A stretch of DNA of 64,000 bases from Escherichia phage Ec_MI-02. Location: sequence record OP856590.1; one strand, 5' to 3'. Under the pieces are notes generated by a model, which saw only the letters and a program-made list of their open reading frames with translations, had not been told where the DNA came from and did not search any database. Made by a program: the position numbers and the translations under genes. This document shows positions 15,165-59,384 of this stretch, one piece after another (position 1 is the stretch's first letter; the number at the start of each line of letters is the position of its first letter).

Positions 15165-15189
15165 AAAAAAGGACTCCCCGAAGGAGTCC
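15165..15189 (-). terminator. rho-independent terminator after soc
   Basis: GGACUCC-UUCGG-GGAGUCC followed by UUUUUU on minus strand. Confidence 0.7.
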
Positions 15190-15197
15190 TTGAATTA

Positions 15198-19293: not shown

Positions 19294-19323
19294 ACTATAC
19301 CATAGTCTTGTCAGCTTGTAAAC
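19294..19323 (-). promoter_or_regulatory. T4 early-type promoter
   Basis: GTTTAC-N18-TATAGT. Confidence 0.5.
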
Positions 19324-20750
19324 TAAAATTTTAATTCATTTGCCAAAGCATCTAACTGAGCTCGAGTGGATTCATTTCTTTGATAGCGATTCTGCTCAGC
19401 CTGAATCTGTTGTGAACCTGCTACTTCACTCACTTCAGTTGGAGTAGAATCTTGTTCAATTTCTACCCATTTCTGATTTCCTTTTTGAACACCCATCAAA
19501 AACTTATTCCATTTGTTCTTATCGCCATATCGTGATTTGATTTGCTTAATGAGTTGTTGTTCAGCAGCTGCTAACTCCTCAGTTTCAATGACCGCAAGCA
19601 TAAAATCAGCTGTTGCTGGAAGACCAGCAGATTCTGCAATATCGCTCATGTTAACATCAGAAGAATCCCAAGCTTGTTTGCCGACCTGTGCTGCAGTCCA
19701 AAGAACAGTTTCGGTTTCAACAGCCAGAGCACGCAATTCCTCTGCAATAGCTTTAACAGTTGTGTAACTATTTTCTGAATAAACTCTAATGCGGCAAGAT
19801 TTACAAATACCTAGATAGTCGACAATAATGATTGTTGGAATAAAATTCTTCTTGAGCTTCAATTCGTTTAAAAGAGATCGAAATGTATTAGCGTCTGCTC
19901 CACCAGTAGGATATTGCTTAACGATTAAACGACCGAGAGTAGATTTCTCACGCCATTTTTCCATTTTTCCTTTATATTCAGCGTAAGAAATATGCCCATC
20001 ATCAATGTCATCAAGAGAAACATCAAGCATATTAGCATCAATACGTTTAGCACAAACTTCTTCTGCCATTTCCATGGAAATGTAAAGAACATTGTGTCCG
20101 AGCTGCAAATAATCTGCTGCCAATGAACACAATCCTAATGACTTACCAACGTTAACACCAGCCATTAAAACATTCAGTGTTCCAGTTTCAGCTCCGCCTT
20201 TAGTAATTTTATTTAGAATTTTGAGTTTAAATGGAACCTTACGAGCTTTATTCATATAAGATAGCCAACGTGCTTCGTAGTCATCCATCCAATCATGACC
20301 AACGTAACTATCAAATGAAATTGATAATGCTTGGCGCATGATGTCAGGAATAGCACCAACATCCGGCATTTTCTTATTTCGTTTTTCCGGAGGAAGCTCA
20401 GCATTAGTTTGAATTTCAATTATTTTAGATGTGGCGTTAAACATCGCCCTTTGCTGAACATATTTTTCTGTTTCTTTTACTAACCAGCTGTGGTCTTCTG
20501 GAGAATCGGCTAGTTTCGAAATAAGTGTTTTTACACCAGAATATTCTGTTTCAGTAAATGAACTATTTTCTAATGCAACATTTAACGCATTAATAGATGG
20601 AACGCTATGGTACTCATTAACATGAGATTTAATTAATTTGAATGTATTTTTAGCTGGACCACTTTCAAAATATTCTGAATCCATATATGGCCAAACTTTT
20701 GAAAAATAAGCTTGATCAAATATGAGATGAGAAAGAATAATTTCTACCAC
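19323..20750 (-). CDS. 41: replicative DNA helicase gp41 (DnaB-like, 475 aa)
   Basis: 475 aa; Walker A GVNVGKS; track start codon is GTG. Confidence 0.9.
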   Translation of the reverse strand: MVEIILSHLIFDQAYFSKVWPYMDSEYFESGPAKNTFKLIKSHVNEYHSVPSINALNVALENSSFTETEYSGVKTLISKLADSPEDHSWLVKETEKYVQQRAMFNATSKIIEIQTNAELPPEKRNKKMPDVGAIPDIMRQALSISFDSYVGHDWMDDYEARWLSYMNKARKVPFKLKILNKITKGGAETGTLNVLMAGVNVGKSLGLCSLAADYLQLGHNVLYISMEMAEEVCAKRIDANMLDVSLDDIDDGHISYAEYKGKMEKWREKSTLGRLIVKQYPTGGADANTFRSLLNELKLKKNFIPTIIIVDYLGICKSCRIRVYSENSYTTVKAIAEELRALAVETETVLWTAAQVGKQAWDSSDVNMSDIAESAGLPATADFMLAVIETEELAAAEQQLIKQIKSRYGDKNKWNKFLMGVQKGNQKWVEIEQDSTPTEVSEVAGSQQIQAEQNRYQRNESTRAQLDALANELKF

Positions 20751-20759
20751 ACTTACTCC

Positions 20760-21104
20760 TTAAAAGAATTTAAATTTTTTCTTTGGCCTTTTATTAAACG
20801 CATCTTGTAGTTGCATTGTAATACATTTTTCTACATGAGGAGCTAACTCAGCTTTTCTTTCTTGGTCAAGAACAGCAAAGTCCATTACGACTTTTCCATC
20901 AACCCAATCTAATTTTGTCACATACGCGATGTGTGTAGAACCGTCTTCTAGTTTAATGACAATCTCCTGGATAACATTTTCCATGGCAGATTTAATTATC
21001 TTAAGAGATTCATTAAAAAGACGTTCTTTTCTTTCTTCTTCCCCCTCCGAAGAGGGGGATTCATCGATAATTTCTAGATCTAAATCTAAATCATCTTTAT
21101 TCAT
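20760..21104 (-). CDS. 40: gp40 head vertex assembly chaperone-like (about 114 aa)
   Basis: between uvsX and 41; track start 21122 is GTG overlapping uvsX, ATG at 21104 with weak SD chosen. Confidence 0.55.
   Translation of the reverse strand: MNKDDLDLDLEIIDESPSSEGEEERKERLFNESLKIIKSAMENVIQEIVIKLEDGSTHIAYVTKLDWVDGKVVMDFAVLDQERKAELAPHVEKCITMQLQDAFNKRPKKKFKFF
21041..21058 (-). other. stable GC hairpin with UUCG loop inside gene 40 coding sequence
   Basis: CCCCCUC-UUCG-GAGGGGG (7 bp stem). Confidence 0.6.
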
Positions 21105-22278
21105 TAAATTCTTCCATATCACTTAACTGATCTAGGTCAGTTTCTAAATCAGCTGCTGATTTACTTTTACTTTCTGGAGATTTAAATTTTTCAACCTTTG
21201 AGTTAATCAATTCATCAACTTCAGCTTCAACAATTTCATTACTATCAATAGCACCTAACTGATAAGCACGTTTAATAGCATCTCGGAATGGCTGATGCTT
21301 AAATAAAGGACCCCAGAATGTAGTGCAGTTAGTATCTTTTGCACGCCAAGATTTTTCTTCGCGAATCATCTCACCGGTTTCTTCGTCAAGAAATTCACGA
21401 GCATACCAGCCATTTTTAGGTTTTACCACAAATCCTAATTCTAGAGCCATATCTAACAATCCAGAATAAGGATCGATGCCACCGTCAAATTTAACATCAA
21501 TAAAGAATTTACTTTTTTCTTTGACGGTACGAGATTTTTCTACATTTAGAACAAATTGATACCCCTGAAGATCAGAACCATCTTTAATCTGGCGCTTACC
21601 GATAATGAATACGGTATCAGCCGAATACATTACGCCTGTACCACCTGTCATCACGGTTTTACTAAACATTTCAATTGTTTCAATTGTATGGTTAACCGCA
21701 ACGCATGGAATGTTTTTAATACTAAAATAAGGAGTAACAATACGGAATAATGACTTCAGTGATTTAGCACGAGTCATATCTGCCACAGATTTTTCATTCA
21801 AGGCATCTTCCGTTTCTTTCTTAGAAGCCATATTACCGATTGAGTCGATGAATACAATAACTTTTTCACCGCGCTCAATAGCTTCAAGCTGATTCACCAT
21901 ATCAATTTTCAGCTGTTCAACTGACTGGATTGGTGTATGAATTACTCGTTCCGGGTCAACTCCCATGGATCGCAAATAAGCTGGAGTAATACCAAATTCG
22001 CTATCATAGAATAGACATACCGCGTCAGGATATTTGTTCAAATACGCCGCAACCATAGTCAAAGACATATTTGATTTAAAGTGTTTAGAAGGACCTGCAA
22101 AAATGGTTAAACCAGACTGCATACCACCATCAATCGCACCAGAAATAGCGATATTAAGCATTGGGATTTTTGTACGGATTACATCCTTTTCATTAAAGAA
22201 TTTAGATGTAGTCAGTTCAGCAGTCATTTTAGAAGTGGAAGCTTTAATCAAACGGGATTTTAAATCTGCAATAGACAT
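21097..22278 (-). CDS. uvsX: UvsX recombinase (RecA-like, 393 aa)
   Basis: RecA fold motifs; MSIADLKSRLIKASTSK start; ATG confirmed. Confidence 0.95.
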   Translation of the reverse strand: MSIADLKSRLIKASTSKMTAELTTSKFFNEKDVIRTKIPMLNIAISGAIDGGMQSGLTIFAGPSKHFKSNMSLTMVAAYLNKYPDAVCLFYDSEFGITPAYLRSMGVDPERVIHTPIQSVEQLKIDMVNQLEAIERGEKVIVFIDSIGNMASKKETEDALNEKSVADMTRAKSLKSLFRIVTPYFSIKNIPCVAVNHTIETIEMFSKTVMTGGTGVMYSADTVFIIGKRQIKDGSDLQGYQFVLNVEKSRTVKEKSKFFIDVKFDGGIDPYSGLLDMALELGFVVKPKNGWYAREFLDEETGEMIREEKSWRAKDTNCTTFWGPLFKHQPFRDAIKRAYQLGAIDSNEIVEAEVDELINSKVEKFKSPESKSKSAADLETDLDQLSDMEEFNE

Positions 22279-22355: not shown

Positions 22356-23198
22356 TTAATCAACTGCTATTGGATGAATAGCATTAAACTTATGAAACGC
22401 TTCTGATTTTTCTTTGCGCGAAACACACATGCGAAGAACCTTTAATGGCTCGTCTTCTTCACCCAACGATTTTCTCTTTTCGATATTCGATGTTTTCCAA
22501 CGAGCTTGCTCTGGAAACTCTCTATTGATTTGCTCAAGAGCTCTATTATGTTTTGAATTACTACGAATTGAACTACACCCGCCAGGAGCTTGTGCTTTTC
22601 CAGATACAACCAGATATTTGAACAAGGCCAAATGCGGATAACCTTGATTAATTAAATTGAGAAATGCATACATATCTTCGCATAAATCAATTTTTCCATA
22701 CCCAATTTGTTCTGTTGTAAGTTTCCCGAGGTCATACCAAGTATTCGTGAATCCATATGAATTTTCACGATAATTACCCCAAGATGAAGTAATTTTAAAA
22801 ATAGGCAGACGAGCATGACCATGATAATACCCGCAATCCATGGCATCTTCAACGTATTGAATCAATTCATAGAACTGTTCACGAGTTAATTGATTAATTT
22901 TATCTACGCAGCGACGATCATCTTTCTTTCGCATTGAACTCATACGAATAGTAGTATCATCATCAATCATCCAAATTCGTTGACCTGCATACATATCAGT
23001 AATTGCTTTACGAGTACCAGCAATTCCGTTAACATCATCAGGAATAGTTATAATTTTAGCTCTAGACCCGTAAGCGTTATAATAAGCTTTTTCTTCGTGT
23101 TCACGTACTACAATATGAGGTTCATAATCAGTCGGAAACATATCAAGGGCAGAAACTGCCCCTACGCGTTGATAGCTTGGAATTACGAATTGAATCAT
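22356..23198 (-). CDS. glycosyltransferase at the beta-gt locus (280 aa), probable HMC-DNA glucosyltransferase
   Basis: between uvsX and 42; WMIDDDT DxD-like motif; not the 351 aa T4 beta-gt; track start GTG, ATG two codons later with ATGA overlap to 42. Confidence 0.6.
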   Translation of the reverse strand: MIQFVIPSYQRVGAVSALDMFPTDYEPHIVVREHEEKAYYNAYGSRAKIITIPDDVNGIAGTRKAITDMYAGQRIWMIDDDTTIRMSSMRKKDDRRCVDKINQLTREQFYELIQYVEDAMDCGYYHGHARLPIFKITSSWGNYRENSYGFTNTWYDLGKLTTEQIGYGKIDLCEDMYAFLNLINQGYPHLALFKYLVVSGKAQAPGGCSSIRSNSKHNRALEQINREFPEQARWKTSNIEKRKSLGEEDEPLKVLRMCVSRKEKSEAFHKFNAIHPIAVD

Positions 23199-23935
23199 TT
23201 CCACTCACCTTTATAATCTTTTTTCACAATATGAGTTTCGCCAGTATTCCACCAATGATCAACCAAGTAAAAATGACGAGAATATACATGAAGACTTCCA
23301 ACATTCCATATAATAGAACCTGCTTTATACTGACGAGTTGAATCGCCTGCATTCAAGTCAGATACTAATTTATCTAGTACGTATTTTTGCCATGCATAAT
23401 CATTACGGAATCCGAAGACCACGTCATTTGAACGCATGCTTACTACTGCATTGACTTTCTTATCACGAATCAGGTACTGCACTGTATTAGTACACATGAA
23501 ATCTGACATACCATCTTTATTGTAGTCAAACTGCATGGATGGACGAGTATAAATCATGATACCACGCCGAGAATCAGGATTTTGACCAAGTTCAGCTAAA
23601 CACATATCATACTGGGCATAGTTATCTTCTGACCAGATGGCCCAACCATAATTCGAGTTAATTTCGCCTTTAGAAGATGCTACCTGCTGCCAAATCTTCG
23701 GTGTTTCACCCGGAATATCTTTAACAAACAAACTTTTAGATTTATACCATTCAAGTTCACGTTGAATGTATTCATCATTAAGAGCGCCAAAAATAAACGG
23801 TTCATCTGCTACAAATGATGCACCAATAATTTCAATAGTTTTAACACCAGTTTTATCAACTACGAAATCTTTTTCTTTTAATGCAAGCCCCAAATGAAGA
23901 CGGATTTCTTCAACTGTCATAGAGTCACTAATCAT
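23195..23935 (-). CDS. 42: dCMP hydroxymethylase gp42 (246 aa)
   Basis: 246 aa; thymidylate-synthase-like fold; ATG confirmed. Confidence 0.9.
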   Translation of the reverse strand: MISDSMTVEEIRLHLGLALKEKDFVVDKTGVKTIEIIGASFVADEPFIFGALNDEYIQRELEWYKSKSLFVKDIPGETPKIWQQVASSKGEINSNYGWAIWSEDNYAQYDMCLAELGQNPDSRRGIMIYTRPSMQFDYNKDGMSDFMCTNTVQYLIRDKKVNAVVSMRSNDVVFGFRNDYAWQKYVLDKLVSDLNAGDSTRQYKAGSIIWNVGSLHVYSRHFYLVDHWWNTGETHIVKKDYKGEWK

Positions 23936-27606: not shown

Positions 27607-27666
27607 AGATATTCCTTAGTTTATAGCCCGAGTTATTAGGCTCTTGATATATTATACTCCAAATAA

Positions 27667-27680
27667 GGGGCCGAAGCCCC
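27667..27680 (-). terminator. GC hairpin with UUCG loop after regA
   Basis: GGGGC-UUCG-GCCCC then UUAUUU. Confidence 0.5.
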
Positions 27681-27684
27681 TTGC

Positions 27685-28053
27685 TTAATTACCAATCGTA
27701 TATTTTGGAACGAGTTTCCATTCATGTTTTTGTTTAAAAGAAATAACTCGGAAGTTATTAGTTAAATCTTTCATAAAAGTTCTTTGACCAGGAACGATTT
27801 CAATCAGTCCCCAATCTTCTAACAGCCACGCAATCGAATCACGACGAACTTCATCTTCTTCTGTCATTTCAACCTGGCGACCATCCATACGAAGCATTTC
27901 TTTAAAATGAACGATATAGTATAGTCCTTTTTTCTGAAGAATGTGGCAGGACTGATACAGAACTTTATCTTTATTATTAGCAATTCCCATACGAGTCAAA
28001 GTTTCTTTTACTTTCAGAAAATCTTCAGGTTTTTTAAGAGTAATTTCAATCAT
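27685..28053 (-). CDS. regA: RegA translational repressor (122 aa)
   Basis: 122 aa; directly downstream of gene 62; ATG confirmed. Confidence 0.85.
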   Translation of the reverse strand: MIEITLKKPEDFLKVKETLTRMGIANNKDKVLYQSCHILQKKGLYYIVHFKEMLRMDGRQVEMTEEDEVRRDSIAWLLEDWGLIEIVPGQRTFMKDLTNNFRVISFKQKHEWKLVPKYTIGN

Positions 28054-28054
28054 T

Positions 28055-28618
28055 TTACCATTCCAATGCTAGTTTTTTGAGTTGTTTCTGTTCTTTTACG
28101 TTCTTAGTCACTTCTTTCAAAAAATCATCCGTGACTAAACCTTTTAGTTCTTTTAATACTAAAGGAAGTTTTCCATTTTTAGTAAGAATTGATTTATAGT
28201 TAATTGCATCATTTGTATTAACTTGATACCGCTTAGCAAGTAACTTAATAATCAATACTTCAGTAGAATCTTCGACCAGTTTTGCCCATTTACCATATCT
28301 TTTACCACGAGGAACAGCAGCCATCAGATAATTAAAATGGGCTTCATCGCTTAAACCTGATCCAATTAAATTCATAGCATATACAGCTGGCATGCATTCA
28401 GGAAATTGTGATAATGCATTCTCAACCATGTATTTTGAATAATCTTTTTGAGCAATAGAGCATTTAGTTTTATTATTAATAGCTCCAATTATTTCAAAAA
28501 ATTCATTTTCAGCTTTTTCCTTAAAAGAATCAGCAGCAGATTGGACAGCTGTCCAATCTTTTGAATACCAAGCAACTTGATGCTCGTTTAATTGAATATC
28601 ATCTTCAAATAAGCTCAT
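28055..28618 (-). CDS. 62: clamp loader small subunit gp62 (187 aa)
   Basis: 187 aa; between 44 and regA. Confidence 0.8.
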
Positions 28619-31013: not shown

Positions 31014-32696
31014 TTAAACCATTACAGTAAATCGACCAACTTTCTTCATTTGAAGATGCTGACCATATGCTTGCGGGTCGTGGTCTCTATGTGAAATAAC
31101 AAAAACATTAGTATTTTTTAAACTATCTAAAATAGTTGAAATAGCTTTTACACCTTCAACATCAGTTGCTGAATCAAAAACTTCATCGAGAATTAGTGTG
31201 TTTATTTTAACACCTGAAACTTTTTCAGCAATATCACGCCAAGTAAATAGAAGAGCAATATCAATTCGTGCTTTTTCGCCTTGACTAAATGAAGCATAAC
31301 TAAAATCTTCACGACCGCGGGATTTAATTGTCTCATTAAATTCTTCATCTAATGTAAACACATAATCCGCTTCCATTATTTTAAGATAATGGTTAATCTG
31401 CTTATTAAATAATGGAATGTACTTTTTAATAATAGCACCTTTAATACCAGAATCTTTGAGCATATCAGTCAAAATTCCTCTGTGGTATTTTTCCATTACT
31501 AAATTAGTTTTTGTCTTAACAATTTTATCAAGTTCTTCTTGAAGCAGTGCTATTTCATCAGCATGGTCAATAAACTCGGATGATGCTTTTTCTATAGCTG
31601 CTTTAACTTTTTTAGCTTTATCTACAGTCGTGATTAGAGATTGCTTTTTATTACGAATATCATTCGCCAACGTCTGCTGGGTTTTAATATTATCTCGGTA
31701 TTCATCAACGAGAACTTTTAAATTATCACGATGTGTTGAAAGCTGTTCAAACGAATGCGTGCATTCAGAAACTTTATCTTTAATTTTAGAAACAACTTTA
31801 TCACCGGAACTTAATTGTGACAAACAGGTTGGACATAATCCACCTTCGTGATACATATTAATGACTTTATTATACGAGTCAATTTTTGATTTAATTAAAA
31901 ATGCTTCTTGACCGATTTTATTAAATGCATCAGTCGGGTCTTCATCCAAAACAATATTAACTAATCTTTCATTAGCTTCTTCTATTTCCGATTTTAGCGT
32001 TCTAGCTTCTTTTGCCAAATCATCATACATATTCTGTAGACGAGTAAGGTTATCACCAGTTAATTTTTTCTGGCGTTCAACGTTATCATTATATATTTTA
32101 ATTTGTTGGATAATACTATCTTTTTTAACATCAAGCACTTGGTTTTGTGAATTTAATTCACGTATTAGTGCTTTATTAAGCTTATCCATTTCAGCTAATG
32201 TTCCTACCTCGAGCAGGTCTTCCACAAGCTTTCTTCGTGCAGGGGTCGACAAACCCATGAAAGGGGTATACCCTGCTGTACCAAGGACAACAATCTGCTT
32301 GAAACTGGCATATGACATTCCGATAAGCTGTTCAAATTCTGCTTGGAAATCTTTACTGCTGGCAGATTCATTAAGACGTGTACCGTTAACGGTGATTTCG
32401 AAAACGTTTGGTTTTTGTCCTCTTTTGATATAGTACTTTTTCTCATCATATTCCATCCACAGTTCAACTAAAAGTTCTTTCTTATTTGTGCTGTTTATTA
32501 ATTGACCTTTCTTTACATCACGAAATGGCTTGCCAAAAAGCCCAAATGTGATGGCTTCTAACATAGTAGACTTACCACCGCCATTTCGTCCAGTAATAAG
32601 AGTTTTTTGAACCTTATCTAGTTGAATGTCAATAGGATTTCCACCTACTGACATTATATTTTGATACCTAACTCGGTTTAGTTTAAAATTCTTCAC
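31014..32696 (-). CDS. 46: recombination endonuclease subunit gp46 (SbcC/Rad50-like, 560 aa)
   Basis: Walker A GRNGGGKST; coiled coil; CPTC zinc hook; GTG start codon. Confidence 0.85.
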   Translation of the reverse strand: MKNFKLNRVRYQNIMSVGGNPIDIQLDKVQKTLITGRNGGGKSTMLEAITFGLFGKPFRDVKKGQLINSTNKKELLVELWMEYDEKKYYIKRGQKPNVFEITVNGTRLNESASSKDFQAEFEQLIGMSYASFKQIVVLGTAGYTPFMGLSTPARRKLVEDLLEVGTLAEMDKLNKALIRELNSQNQVLDVKKDSIIQQIKIYNDNVERQKKLTGDNLTRLQNMYDDLAKEARTLKSEIEEANERLVNIVLDEDPTDAFNKIGQEAFLIKSKIDSYNKVINMYHEGGLCPTCLSQLSSGDKVVSKIKDKVSECTHSFEQLSTHRDNLKVLVDEYRDNIKTQQTLANDIRNKKQSLITTVDKAKKVKAAIEKASSEFIDHADEIALLQEELDKIVKTKTNLVMEKYHRGILTDMLKDSGIKGAIIKKYIPLFNKQINHYLKIMEADYVFTLDEEFNETIKSRGREDFSYASFSQGEKARIDIALLFTWRDIAEKVSGVKINTLILDEVFDSATDVEGVKAISTILDSLKNTNVFVISHRDHDPQAYGQHLQMKKVGRFTVMV

Positions 32697-36163: not shown

Positions 36164-36187
36164 ATTTTACCAAAAATTTATAAAGCA
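36164..36187 (-). promoter_or_regulatory. MotA-dependent middle promoter for a-gt
   Basis: tTGCTTTA, 11 nt, TAAAAT. Confidence 0.4.
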
Positions 36188-36191
36188 ATAT

Positions 36192-36207
36192 AGGAGCCGA
36201 AGCTCCT
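36192..36207 (-). terminator. GC hairpin with UUCG loop
   Basis: AGGAGC-UUCG-GCUCCU. Confidence 0.45.
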
Positions 36208-36382
36208 ATCCGCATAATACACCATACAGAGGCTCATTAGAGCTTCTAAATTTTATACGCTTATATGTTATAGTTCCTTCTGCTTTAGCTTTATCATGAG
36301 ACTCTTTAAAGCGTCTCATCATTTCTACTTTAGAGGAACGAATTTTATTATAATCTATTTCAGAAGTCTGGGTGTTCATCTT

Positions 36383-45087: not shown

Positions 45088-45266
45088 TTAGAAATAGACT
45101 TTTCACCATTAGAATAATAAACTTCGAGTTTAGCGCGGCCATTTTTAATTTGAATAACCTTTGCTGTCATCAAAGTTCCATATCCATAATAAACTGCAAC
45201 CTCATCACCTACATATACCGCGCTTCCGCGGTAGTCATGGATATAATCAGTTCTTTCGAGCATCAT
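45051..45266 (-). CDS. hypothetical protein (71 aa)
   Basis: ATG start. Confidence 0.45.
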   Translation of the reverse strand: MMLERTDYIHDYRGSAVYVGDEVAVYYGYGTLMTAKVIQIKNGRAKLEVYYSNGEKSISKWKYGDCMVKLG

Positions 45267-52522: not shown

Positions 52523-52552
52523 CGTTTTGTGAAAAAATTTTGAAATAAAAAA

Positions 52553-52570
52553 GGGAGCCCGAAGGCTCCC
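52553..52570 (-). terminator. rho-independent terminator after NTase-like gene
   Basis: GGGAGCC-UUCG-GGCUCCC followed by UUUUUUAUUU. Confidence 0.7.
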
Positions 52571-52572
52571 TA

Positions 52573-58933: not shown

Positions 58934-59384
58934 AATCCACCACTATTAAATCAATATCAGGAGTAAACATGTCAATTAATTTAGAAACCTTATCCCAATC
59001 ACCACCAGCAATACCGCAACCTATGCGTGGAATGTAAATTACTGGTTTAAACAAAAGGGTTTCTGCCTGTAGATTTAATTCTATCATGCAATTTACTAAA
59101 GCACCATAATCAAGATTAGGACCCGGTTCGTATTGCGTATACAAATTATAGCACATACTAAATCCTGTAGGATTATGTTTAAAAACAATAGACATATCGC
59201 CTAATTTATCACGAGAACCGTACTCGGTAGTGGTTTTATCTATTTCTAAAATTTTGGGATAGGCTCTTGCTAATTGACCCGCTACGCCAGAGCCCATTGT
59301 GTGGAAGCAATTGCACCCGTGCGCAATAATATTACCTTGAAGAAATAGGGCGACAATATCGCCCTTGATATATTTTACAATCAT
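58905..59384 (-). CDS. macro-domain protein (159 aa), predicted ADP-ribose binding/hydrolase
   Basis: macro motif IAHGCNCFHTMGSGVAGQLA and C-terminal GCGIAGGDW. Confidence 0.65.
   Translation of the reverse strand: MIVKYIKGDIVALFLQGNIIAHGCNCFHTMGSGVAGQLARAYPKILEIDKTTTEYGSRDKLGDMSIVFKHNPTGFSMCYNLYTQYEPGPNLDYGALVNCMIELNLQAETLLFKPVIYIPRIGCGIAGGDWDKVSKLIDMFTPDIDLIVVDYESTLPASV

Follow-up and report, generated by a model that had tools for sequence, protein, structure and literature searches.

The window analysed here is the whole 64,000-nt stretch of DNA from Escherichia phage Ec_MI-02 (OP856590.1), in which uvsX, gene 40 and gene 41 follow one another on the minus strand and a very stable hairpin is found early in the gene 40 coding sequence. 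The phage is a T4-like Tequatrovirus; searching with 601 nt from around the site hits 653 phage records, among which Shigella phage sb3 is 99.3% identical and a T4 record 96.5%, and the T4 sequence is identical to that of the window across the hairpin and its flanks. The genes and the parts of the hairpin are as follows.

21097..22278, minus strand: uvsX, RecA-like recombinase; its stop codon overlaps the gene 40 start
20760..21104, minus strand: gene 40, head vertex assembly chaperone, 114 aa; ATG at 21104, stop codon at 20760-20762
19323..20750, minus strand: gene 41, replicative helicase, downstream of gene 40, GTG start
21041..21058, minus strand: core hairpin, CCCCCUC-UUCG-GAGGGGG in mRNA sense, from the sequence and RNAfold
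21058..21052, minus strand: 5' arm of the hairpin, CCCCCUC
21051..21048, minus strand: loop of the hairpin, UUCG
21047..21041, minus strand: 3' arm of the hairpin, GAGGGGG
21040..21059 (21059..21040 in the direction of the mRNA), minus strand: extended 8-bp stem, including a flanking U-A pair

The plus strand of the core hairpin (21041-21058) reads ccccctccgaagaggggg, and in a 101-nt context RNAfold places the hairpin in the minimum free energy and centroid structures alike. CTTCGG occupies 21047-21052 on the minus strand (CUUCGG, 21052..21047, in the RNA), the UUCG loop is closed by a C-G pair and the arms are stably complementary, as expected of a C(UUCG)G tetraloop hairpin. The original prediction had described a 7 bp G/C stem with a UUCG loop; the hairpin is real, but its core stem is not purely G/C, consisting of six G-C pairs and one U-A pair, and it reaches 8 bp with the flanking U-A pair. 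The local GC content is 0.35.

The hairpin starts 46 nt past the ATG of gene 40 and 38 nt past the end of the uvsX stop codon. It covers codons 16-22 of gene 40 (S-P-S-S-E-G-E), in agreement with its earlier placement inside the acidic N-terminal coding part of the gene, and these residues fall outside the Pfam Phage_head_chap domain of gp40 (residues 44-99). Because uvsX and gene 40 overlap, there is no spacer between them, and the stem-loop is accommodated in the acidic N-terminal codons of gene 40, which tolerate sequence change.

Of the two features of an intrinsic terminator, the G+C-rich stem is present and the U-rich tract directly 3' of it is lacking; the tail, AAGAAGAAAGAA, is A/G-rich. 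A terminator scan requiring at least 5 T in 8 bases left the gene 40 hairpin unflagged, which bears out the earlier statement that it is no canonical terminator for want of a U tract. Nothing in the promoter and terminator scan accounts for the hairpin, no exact late-promoter sequence TATAAATA lies near gene 40, and Rfam gave no covariance-model match up to E = 1 on either strand of 20600-21500. Neither of the T4 records NC_000866 and AF158101 has a regulatory or stem-loop feature annotated at the hairpin.

The ORF adjoining uvsX (22356-23204, minus strand) encodes a protein of 282 aa from the TET-associated glycosyltransferase family (Pfam TAGT, E = 1.7e-9), and the T4 annotation has segA and beta-glucosyltransferase in this position. 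In its DNA-glucosylation gene the phage is thus unlike T4, and it is without the segA homing endonuclease here.

Stability, codon choice and similar hairpins in the window

The predicted energy of the hairpin, -16.7 kcal/mol, is the minimum over ~128,000 30-nt segments on both strands of the 64 kb. Its codons TCC, CCC, TCT, TCG, GAG and GGG account for 4%, 1.8%, 36%, 5.5%, 16% and 6.2% of the usage within their respective amino acids in the phage genome; they are mostly the rarest synonymous choices available, and the joint usage probability of the six is 1.4e-7. When residues 11-30 were recoded synonymously with usage weighting, an equally strong fold was obtained in only 19 of 20,000 recodings.

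Strong hairpins on the minus strand of the window tend to follow stop codons. Among the 23 with energies of -12 kcal/mol or below, 8 start between -5 and +70 nt from the stop codon of an ORF with 100 aa or more, a zone that makes up 8% of positions (binomial p = 2.7e-4). Some of these post-stop hairpins are canonical terminators with U runs, and others lie within the first codons of the next gene. The hexamer CTTCGG is also frequent, with 28 copies in the window versus 12.2 ± 4.0 expected.

Several CTTCGG copies form the loops of strong hairpins on the transcribed strand, for example at 52552-52571, 15169-15191, 27660-27687 and 36185-36213, all on the minus strand. The first of these, AGGGAGCC-UUCG-GGCUCCCU followed by UUUUUAUUU, carries a U run after an ORF stop and resembles a canonical terminator, as does the second (15169-15191), in which the hairpin and U run come right after an ORF stop. 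Five other minus-strand hairpins of -12.8 to -14 kcal/mol (23144-23164, 28538-28559, 32626-32654, 45212-45239 and 59347-59365) lie 15-60 nt past the stop of the upstream ORF, within the first codons of the next, an architecture like that of uvsX and gene 40; one of the five lies within the glycosyltransferase ORF, 30 nt beyond the stop of gene 42, and another at the 5' end of a gene 46-like SMC/Rad50 ORF.

Conservation of the fold downstream of uvsX

Approximately 380 of ~500 Tequatrovirus records are identical across 48 nt around the hairpin, and in the most divergent Tequatrovirus matches checked (KMB39 and MLF4) synonymous third-position changes occur just 5' of an intact stem. Tequatrovirus, Mosigvirus, Karamvirus, Jiaodavirus and several IMG/VR contigs form a wider group that shares the encoded peptide P-S-x-E-G, with nucleotide identities as low as 55-63%. 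In this group the loop varies between UUCG, UCAG, UUUG and GGAA.

A comparison of codon usage at the site in relatives had been proposed with the original prediction, and it reveals fewer synonymous differences at the hairpin than elsewhere in gene 40, those present being paired. When 21 gene 40 sequences are aligned by codon with the protein as guide, the fraction of synonymous differences is 0.10-0.26 at the three hairpin codons with four- or six-fold degeneracy, versus 0.45-0.80 at all 19 other conserved columns of that degeneracy. The facing codons change together in this alignment, 17 sequences having CCC/GAG and 3 having CCT/GAA; in Mosigvirus CCU is matched by GAA, a compensatory change from C-G to U-A, and KPV15 has replaced TCC/GGG by TCT/GGA (UCU with GGA), likewise a compensatory synonymous pair.

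Covariation is also seen when the alignment is made blind to structure. RNAalifold on such a MAFFT alignment predicts this hairpin alone in the first 120-150 nt of gene 40, with double changes in three of its seven pairs. Plain MAFFT on the isolated hairpins misaligned the divergent ones, and artificial constant anchors were then used to force a hairpin-centred alignment; this displays double changes in all seven pairs and 18 extra pair types, but it is circular, being built from folded hairpins, and serves as description only. No uncompensated variant of the gene 40 stem was seen in a pattern scan of IMG/VR, a small sample of 32 matching stretches of which about half are unrelated terminators.

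Two relatives show irregular gene 40 frames. In Citrobacter phage CF1 (NC_042067.1; locus L015, ~1490-1530) the 5' arm of the hairpin holds four C rather than five (ACCCCTCTCAGGAGGGGG), which shifts the gene 40 frame so that the protein match begins only at residue 17, and in IMGVR_UViG_2700989062_000001 (locus L016) there is an early stop in the gene 40 frame at 1783. Each of the two may come from a sequencing error in a homopolymer or be a true frameshift.

A site for the RegB endonuclease (GGAG) was considered as the conserved feature and rejected, as GGAG is buried in the stem and is missing in Mosigvirus, Entb_45 and IME08.

Across genera, including more distant ones, the stem-loop is rebuilt at the same place from other sequences, as in the following hairpins.

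Cronus (Roskildevirus): UCCUCCCC-UUCG-GGGGAGGA
KPV15: UCUCCCUC-GGAA-GAGGGAGA
Gravdalen (Winklervirus): GGAAUCCUC-UGAU-GAGGAUUCC
E. coli phage 212: 12-bp stem with a UAAG loop
phi1_146055: 11-bp stem with a GAAG loop
Entb_45 (Kanagawavirus): GAGGGCC-CUAGU-GGCCCUC
IME08 (Dhakavirus): GAGGGUC-CUAGU-GACCCUC

Entb_45 and IME08 have the purine and pyrimidine arms in the opposite order to T4, and a compensatory pair distinguishes one from the other. The peptides encoded under the hairpin vary as well (SPSSEGE, SSPSGEE, EESSDEDS, AEGAKAPS and EEGPSGPQ); as they differ while the fold stays, the peptide follows the fold and not the reverse. The tetraloop is replaceable in these sequences, and it is the stem that is conserved.

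Roughly 1,100 Straboviridae genomes have gp40, and a profile-based search for the locus added only two loci. The position of the hairpin was compared at 19 Straboviridae loci; uvsX lies directly before gene 40 in 17. In 16 of these 17, the hairpin is the best 30-nt fold in ~1.5 kb and starts 4-60 nt past the uvsX stop, versus a chance expectation of ~0.06 per locus (a zone of ~90 nt in 1,500); the loci are phylogenetically related, so these counts overstate independence, the distinct hairpin sequences numbering at least 10. The exception is Acinetobacter phage MD-2021a (locus L028, ~600-720), in which uvsX is directly upstream with a 3-nt gap and no hairpin stands out, the best nearby fold being one of -10.9 kcal/mol within uvsX.

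Tevenvirinae have the hairpin inside the gene 40 ORF, 43-61 nt from its beginning. It is found instead in an untranslated spacer between uvsX and gene 40 in Morganella phage MP1, Shewanella phage Thanatos-1 and Aeromonas phage Asswx_1, and the hairpins of Thanatos-1 and Asswx_1 are followed by U-rich tails. Acinetobacter phage W16, where uvsX is not upstream of gene 40, has no notable hairpin at gene 40. In Shigella phage SdyM_006 the strongest hairpin of 4 kb, at -16.7 kcal/mol, lies 113 nt past the uvsX stop, farther from it than at the other loci, and gene 40 contains none. The latter genome (vB_SdyM_006, MK295204.1; locus L068, 410-1789) has uvsX and gene 40 separated by a Hef-like homing endonuclease gene that overlaps each of them, and its hairpin, CCUGGGGUG-UCUU-UACCCCAGG, is inside the 5' part of that gene.

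Two of the divergent versions indicate which strand folds. The hairpin of phage 212 has a predicted energy of -19.2 in the sense strand and -8.8 in the antisense strand, and that of phi1_146055 -18.0 and -13.0, respectively. The G-U pairs exist in the sense strand only, which points to folding of the mRNA-sense RNA and disfavours a DNA cruciform or an antisense RNA.

The identical sequence CCCCCTCTTCGGAGGGGG, or a variant of it with a TACG or TGCG loop, is also present in unrelated phage contigs (IMG/VR L036, L040, L042, L052, L054, L055 and L060-L062; Erwinia phage ChrisDB, NC_031126.1, 57687-57709), where a T run follows and it is apparently an ordinary intrinsic terminator. With this recurrence in unrelated contigs, the hairpin sequence is a recurrent solution and not one unique to gene 40.

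The fold is exceptional, is selected at the nucleotide level and is conserved as a structure across genera, and it tracks the uvsX stop rather than the gp40 protein. No report of this comparative pattern, a hairpin kept after uvsX across genera, was found in a limited literature search, and the comparative picture may be new.

The T4 stem-loop and explanations for the hairpin

The 358 nt upstream of T4 gene 41, which are essentially gene 40, were used by Kim et al. 2025 of the Hinton laboratory (PMC12152347). In the legend to Fig. 5B of that paper, a stem-loop is placed in this region immediately 5' of an in vivo RNA 3' end, with Hinton 1989 cited; the original reports of the 3'-end site in gene 40 are, as described there, Hinton 1989, J Biol Chem 264:14432 and 14440. 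When the T4 358-nt region is folded, the hairpin reaches -16.7 kcal/mol and the next best local stem-loop -7.1. As the only strong stem-loop in the region, the hairpin of the window is very likely the T4 stem-loop that precedes the gene 40 3' end. The element itself is already known, the T4 stem-loop and the 3' end having been on record since 1989 by the account of Kim et al. No usable T4 Term-seq data or 3'-end map was found in the literature search.

The same paper reports that the gene 40 RNA 3' end is more abundant in rho-mutant hosts, that the level of gene 41 mRNA depends on transcripts that continue beyond the gene 40 3'-end site, and that extension into gene 41 is restored by GoF(D25Y) (PMC12152347). 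GoF(D25Y) is further described as lengthening the half-life of RNA carrying the 358-nt region, from which its action was concluded to be post-transcriptional, and Rop, an unrelated RNA-binding protein that is not an antiterminator, also rescues growth (PMC12152347). The stem-loop and its 3' end are central to the question of how rho (nusD) alleles and goF mutations alter the mRNA of the gene 41 helicase.

That the feature is functional is almost certain. The preferred reading, given a probability of roughly 0.6, is that the hairpin is a 3'-end-defining, stabilising stem-loop of the uvsX message which limits the expression of genes 40 and 41. Transcripts would start at the uvsX middle promoter or at early promoters upstream, and some would end in the region of genes 40 and 41 through Rho or endonuclease cleavage. 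Exonucleases acting in the 3'-to-5' direction would then shorten these ends as far as the foot of the highly stable C(UUCG)G stem and halt there, leaving a stable mRNA for uvsX alone, with genes 40 and 41 carried by read-through molecules only. The hairpin would in this manner set an expression ratio in which UvsX is high and gp40 and gp41 are low, and it may be the point at which host Rho alleles and phage GoF(D25Y) change gene 41 mRNA levels. In T4, UvsX is needed stoichiometrically and gp41 and gp40 in small amounts, which matches the proposed ratio.

As required of a barrier to 3' exonucleases, a very stable stem-loop is found 38 nt downstream of the uvsX cistron. The stable stem lacking a U tract, its place tied to the uvsX stop and its tolerance of any loop, taken with the T4 reports on the 3' end, Rho, Rop and GoF(D25Y), are best fitted by an exonuclease-blocking stem-loop. 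We infer that exonuclease arrest, and not direct termination, produces the 3' end, and that the element serves to express uvsX and genes 40 and 41 at different levels. The original prediction had offered an RNA processing or stability element as one reading, and this gains support from the in vivo 3' end described for T4 (PMC12152347), from the hairpin being the sole strong stem-loop of the region and from its compensatory conservation. It had also held that a sequence unconserved in relatives, with no transcript ends or pauses at the site, would refute the idea; the fold is kept in relatives, and a 3' end is reported in T4 (PMC12152347).

The main rival is leaky hairpin-dependent termination or pausing, in which the element is a transcriptional attenuator: the nascent hairpin would pause or release RNA polymerase, with or without Rho or NusA, so that a fraction of transcripts would end right behind the stem, and the remaining polymerases would read through into genes 40 and 41. 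A T4 3' end immediately past the stem-loop, with an abundance that shifts with rho alleles (PMC12152347), is what such an attenuator would produce, the intergenic hairpins of Thanatos-1 and Asswx_1 resemble weak intrinsic terminators with their U-rich tails, and in unrelated phage contigs a T run comes after the identical 18-mer, which apparently serves there as an intrinsic terminator. However, the U tract is missing in the window and in most intragenic versions, and hairpins of this kind are normally poor release signals; moreover, the reported action of GoF(D25Y) is post-transcriptional, on RNA half-life, and Rop rescues with no antiterminator activity (PMC12152347). The attenuator is therefore considered unlikely, while being a serious candidate.

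Much less probable is a translational role, in which the stem would hold back or restrict ribosomes near the start of gene 40 and act as a pause or throttle on a protein needed sparingly. The distance of 43-61 nt into the ORF in Tevenvirinae and the rare codons that make up the hairpin would suit it, but stems of this size are unwound by translating ribosomes, and the hairpin is too distant from the start codon to occlude initiation. The hairpin is also absent from W16, which has gene 40 with no preceding uvsX, and a translational pause, the other function suggested originally, is not supported as the conserved one, given that MP1, Thanatos-1 and Asswx_1 have the hairpin in the untranslated spacer upstream of gene 40 and that in SdyM_006 it follows uvsX. 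Least probable of all, to the point of being hardly credible, is the absence of an RNA function, with the palindrome as a by-product of the Pro-Ser...Glu-Gly peptide or as a DNA-level site (a cruciform or the site of a dimeric protein). The codons for Pro (CCN) and Gly (GGN) and for Ser (UCU) and Glu (GAG) are indeed mutually complementary, and the stem is a perfect inverted repeat in DNA. The choice and retention of the rarest synonymous codons, the lack of peptide conservation where the fold is conserved and the position outside the Pfam domain of gp40 all run counter to this view, non-coding versions of the hairpin exist, and the G-U pairs of phage 212 and phi1_146055 weaken the antisense or DNA form.

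A broader form of the preferred stem-loop reading is put forward as an even bet. By this account, a cis element made of structure only would be kept just downstream of uvsX across much of the Straboviridae, in at least 10 independent versions from about a dozen genera, which lie between the genes or are overprinted by the ORF that follows; it would dictate part of the N-terminal peptide of gp40 (PSSEG, SPSGE, EGPSGP and others), form a valve between the abundant recombinase and the helicase gene 41, and be the cis target of Rho alleles and the LSm-like GoF. Selection on the fold, and not on the peptide or the UUCG loop, together with a fold that follows the uvsX stop, argues for a key cis element of the conserved boundary between uvsX and genes 40-41. 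What is added to the T4 work is the evidence that the fold is conserved between genera as a structure and that it is linked to the 3' boundary of uvsX. The natural variants, with their swapped loops, swapped arms and intergenic placements, are ready material for the question of barrier versus terminator, and the locus illustrates cleanly how a compact phage genome can overprint a regulatory RNA structure on coding sequence.

Comparison with known systems

The closest known counterpart is the T4 gene 40 stem-loop itself, which is identical to that of the window in sequence and in its place within the 358 nt before gene 41. The phage of the window is not T4, being ~96.5% identical over the region and carrying another glycosyltransferase beside uvsX, and no difference between the stem-loops is known.

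It was in mRNA of T4 that the UUCG tetraloop was first noticed (Hall 2015, PMC4371310). The hairpin shares with the C(UUCG)G hairpins of T4 the CUUCGG hexamer, the C-G closing pair and a G+C-rich stem; it differs from them in being intragenic, and its relatives have the loops UCAG, UUUG, GGAA, UGAU, UAAG and CUAGU. The T4 hairpins are said to have been described by Tuerk et al. in 1988 (PNAS 85:1364) as lying mainly in intercistronic regions.

Intrinsic terminators resemble the hairpin in having a G+C-rich stem-loop soon after a stop codon, and the same 18-mer with a T run is found in unrelated contigs. In contrast to them, the gene 40 hairpin has no U tract and sits inside a translated ORF, and read-through is needed for the essential gene 41.

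Stem-loops that block 3' exonucleases stabilise segments of polycistronic mRNAs, as known from the REP sequences in malEFG, the hairpins of the puf operon and Rho-terminated transcripts trimmed back to a stem-loop. The gene 40 hairpin differs from these in being embedded in coding sequence and not in a spacer, and its arrest of exonucleases is putative. It is like them in being a stable stem-loop that stands between a strongly expressed gene upstream and weakly expressed genes downstream, for which a U tract is unneeded, and in the 3' end at the base of the stem, as reported for T4 gene 40 (PMC12152347).
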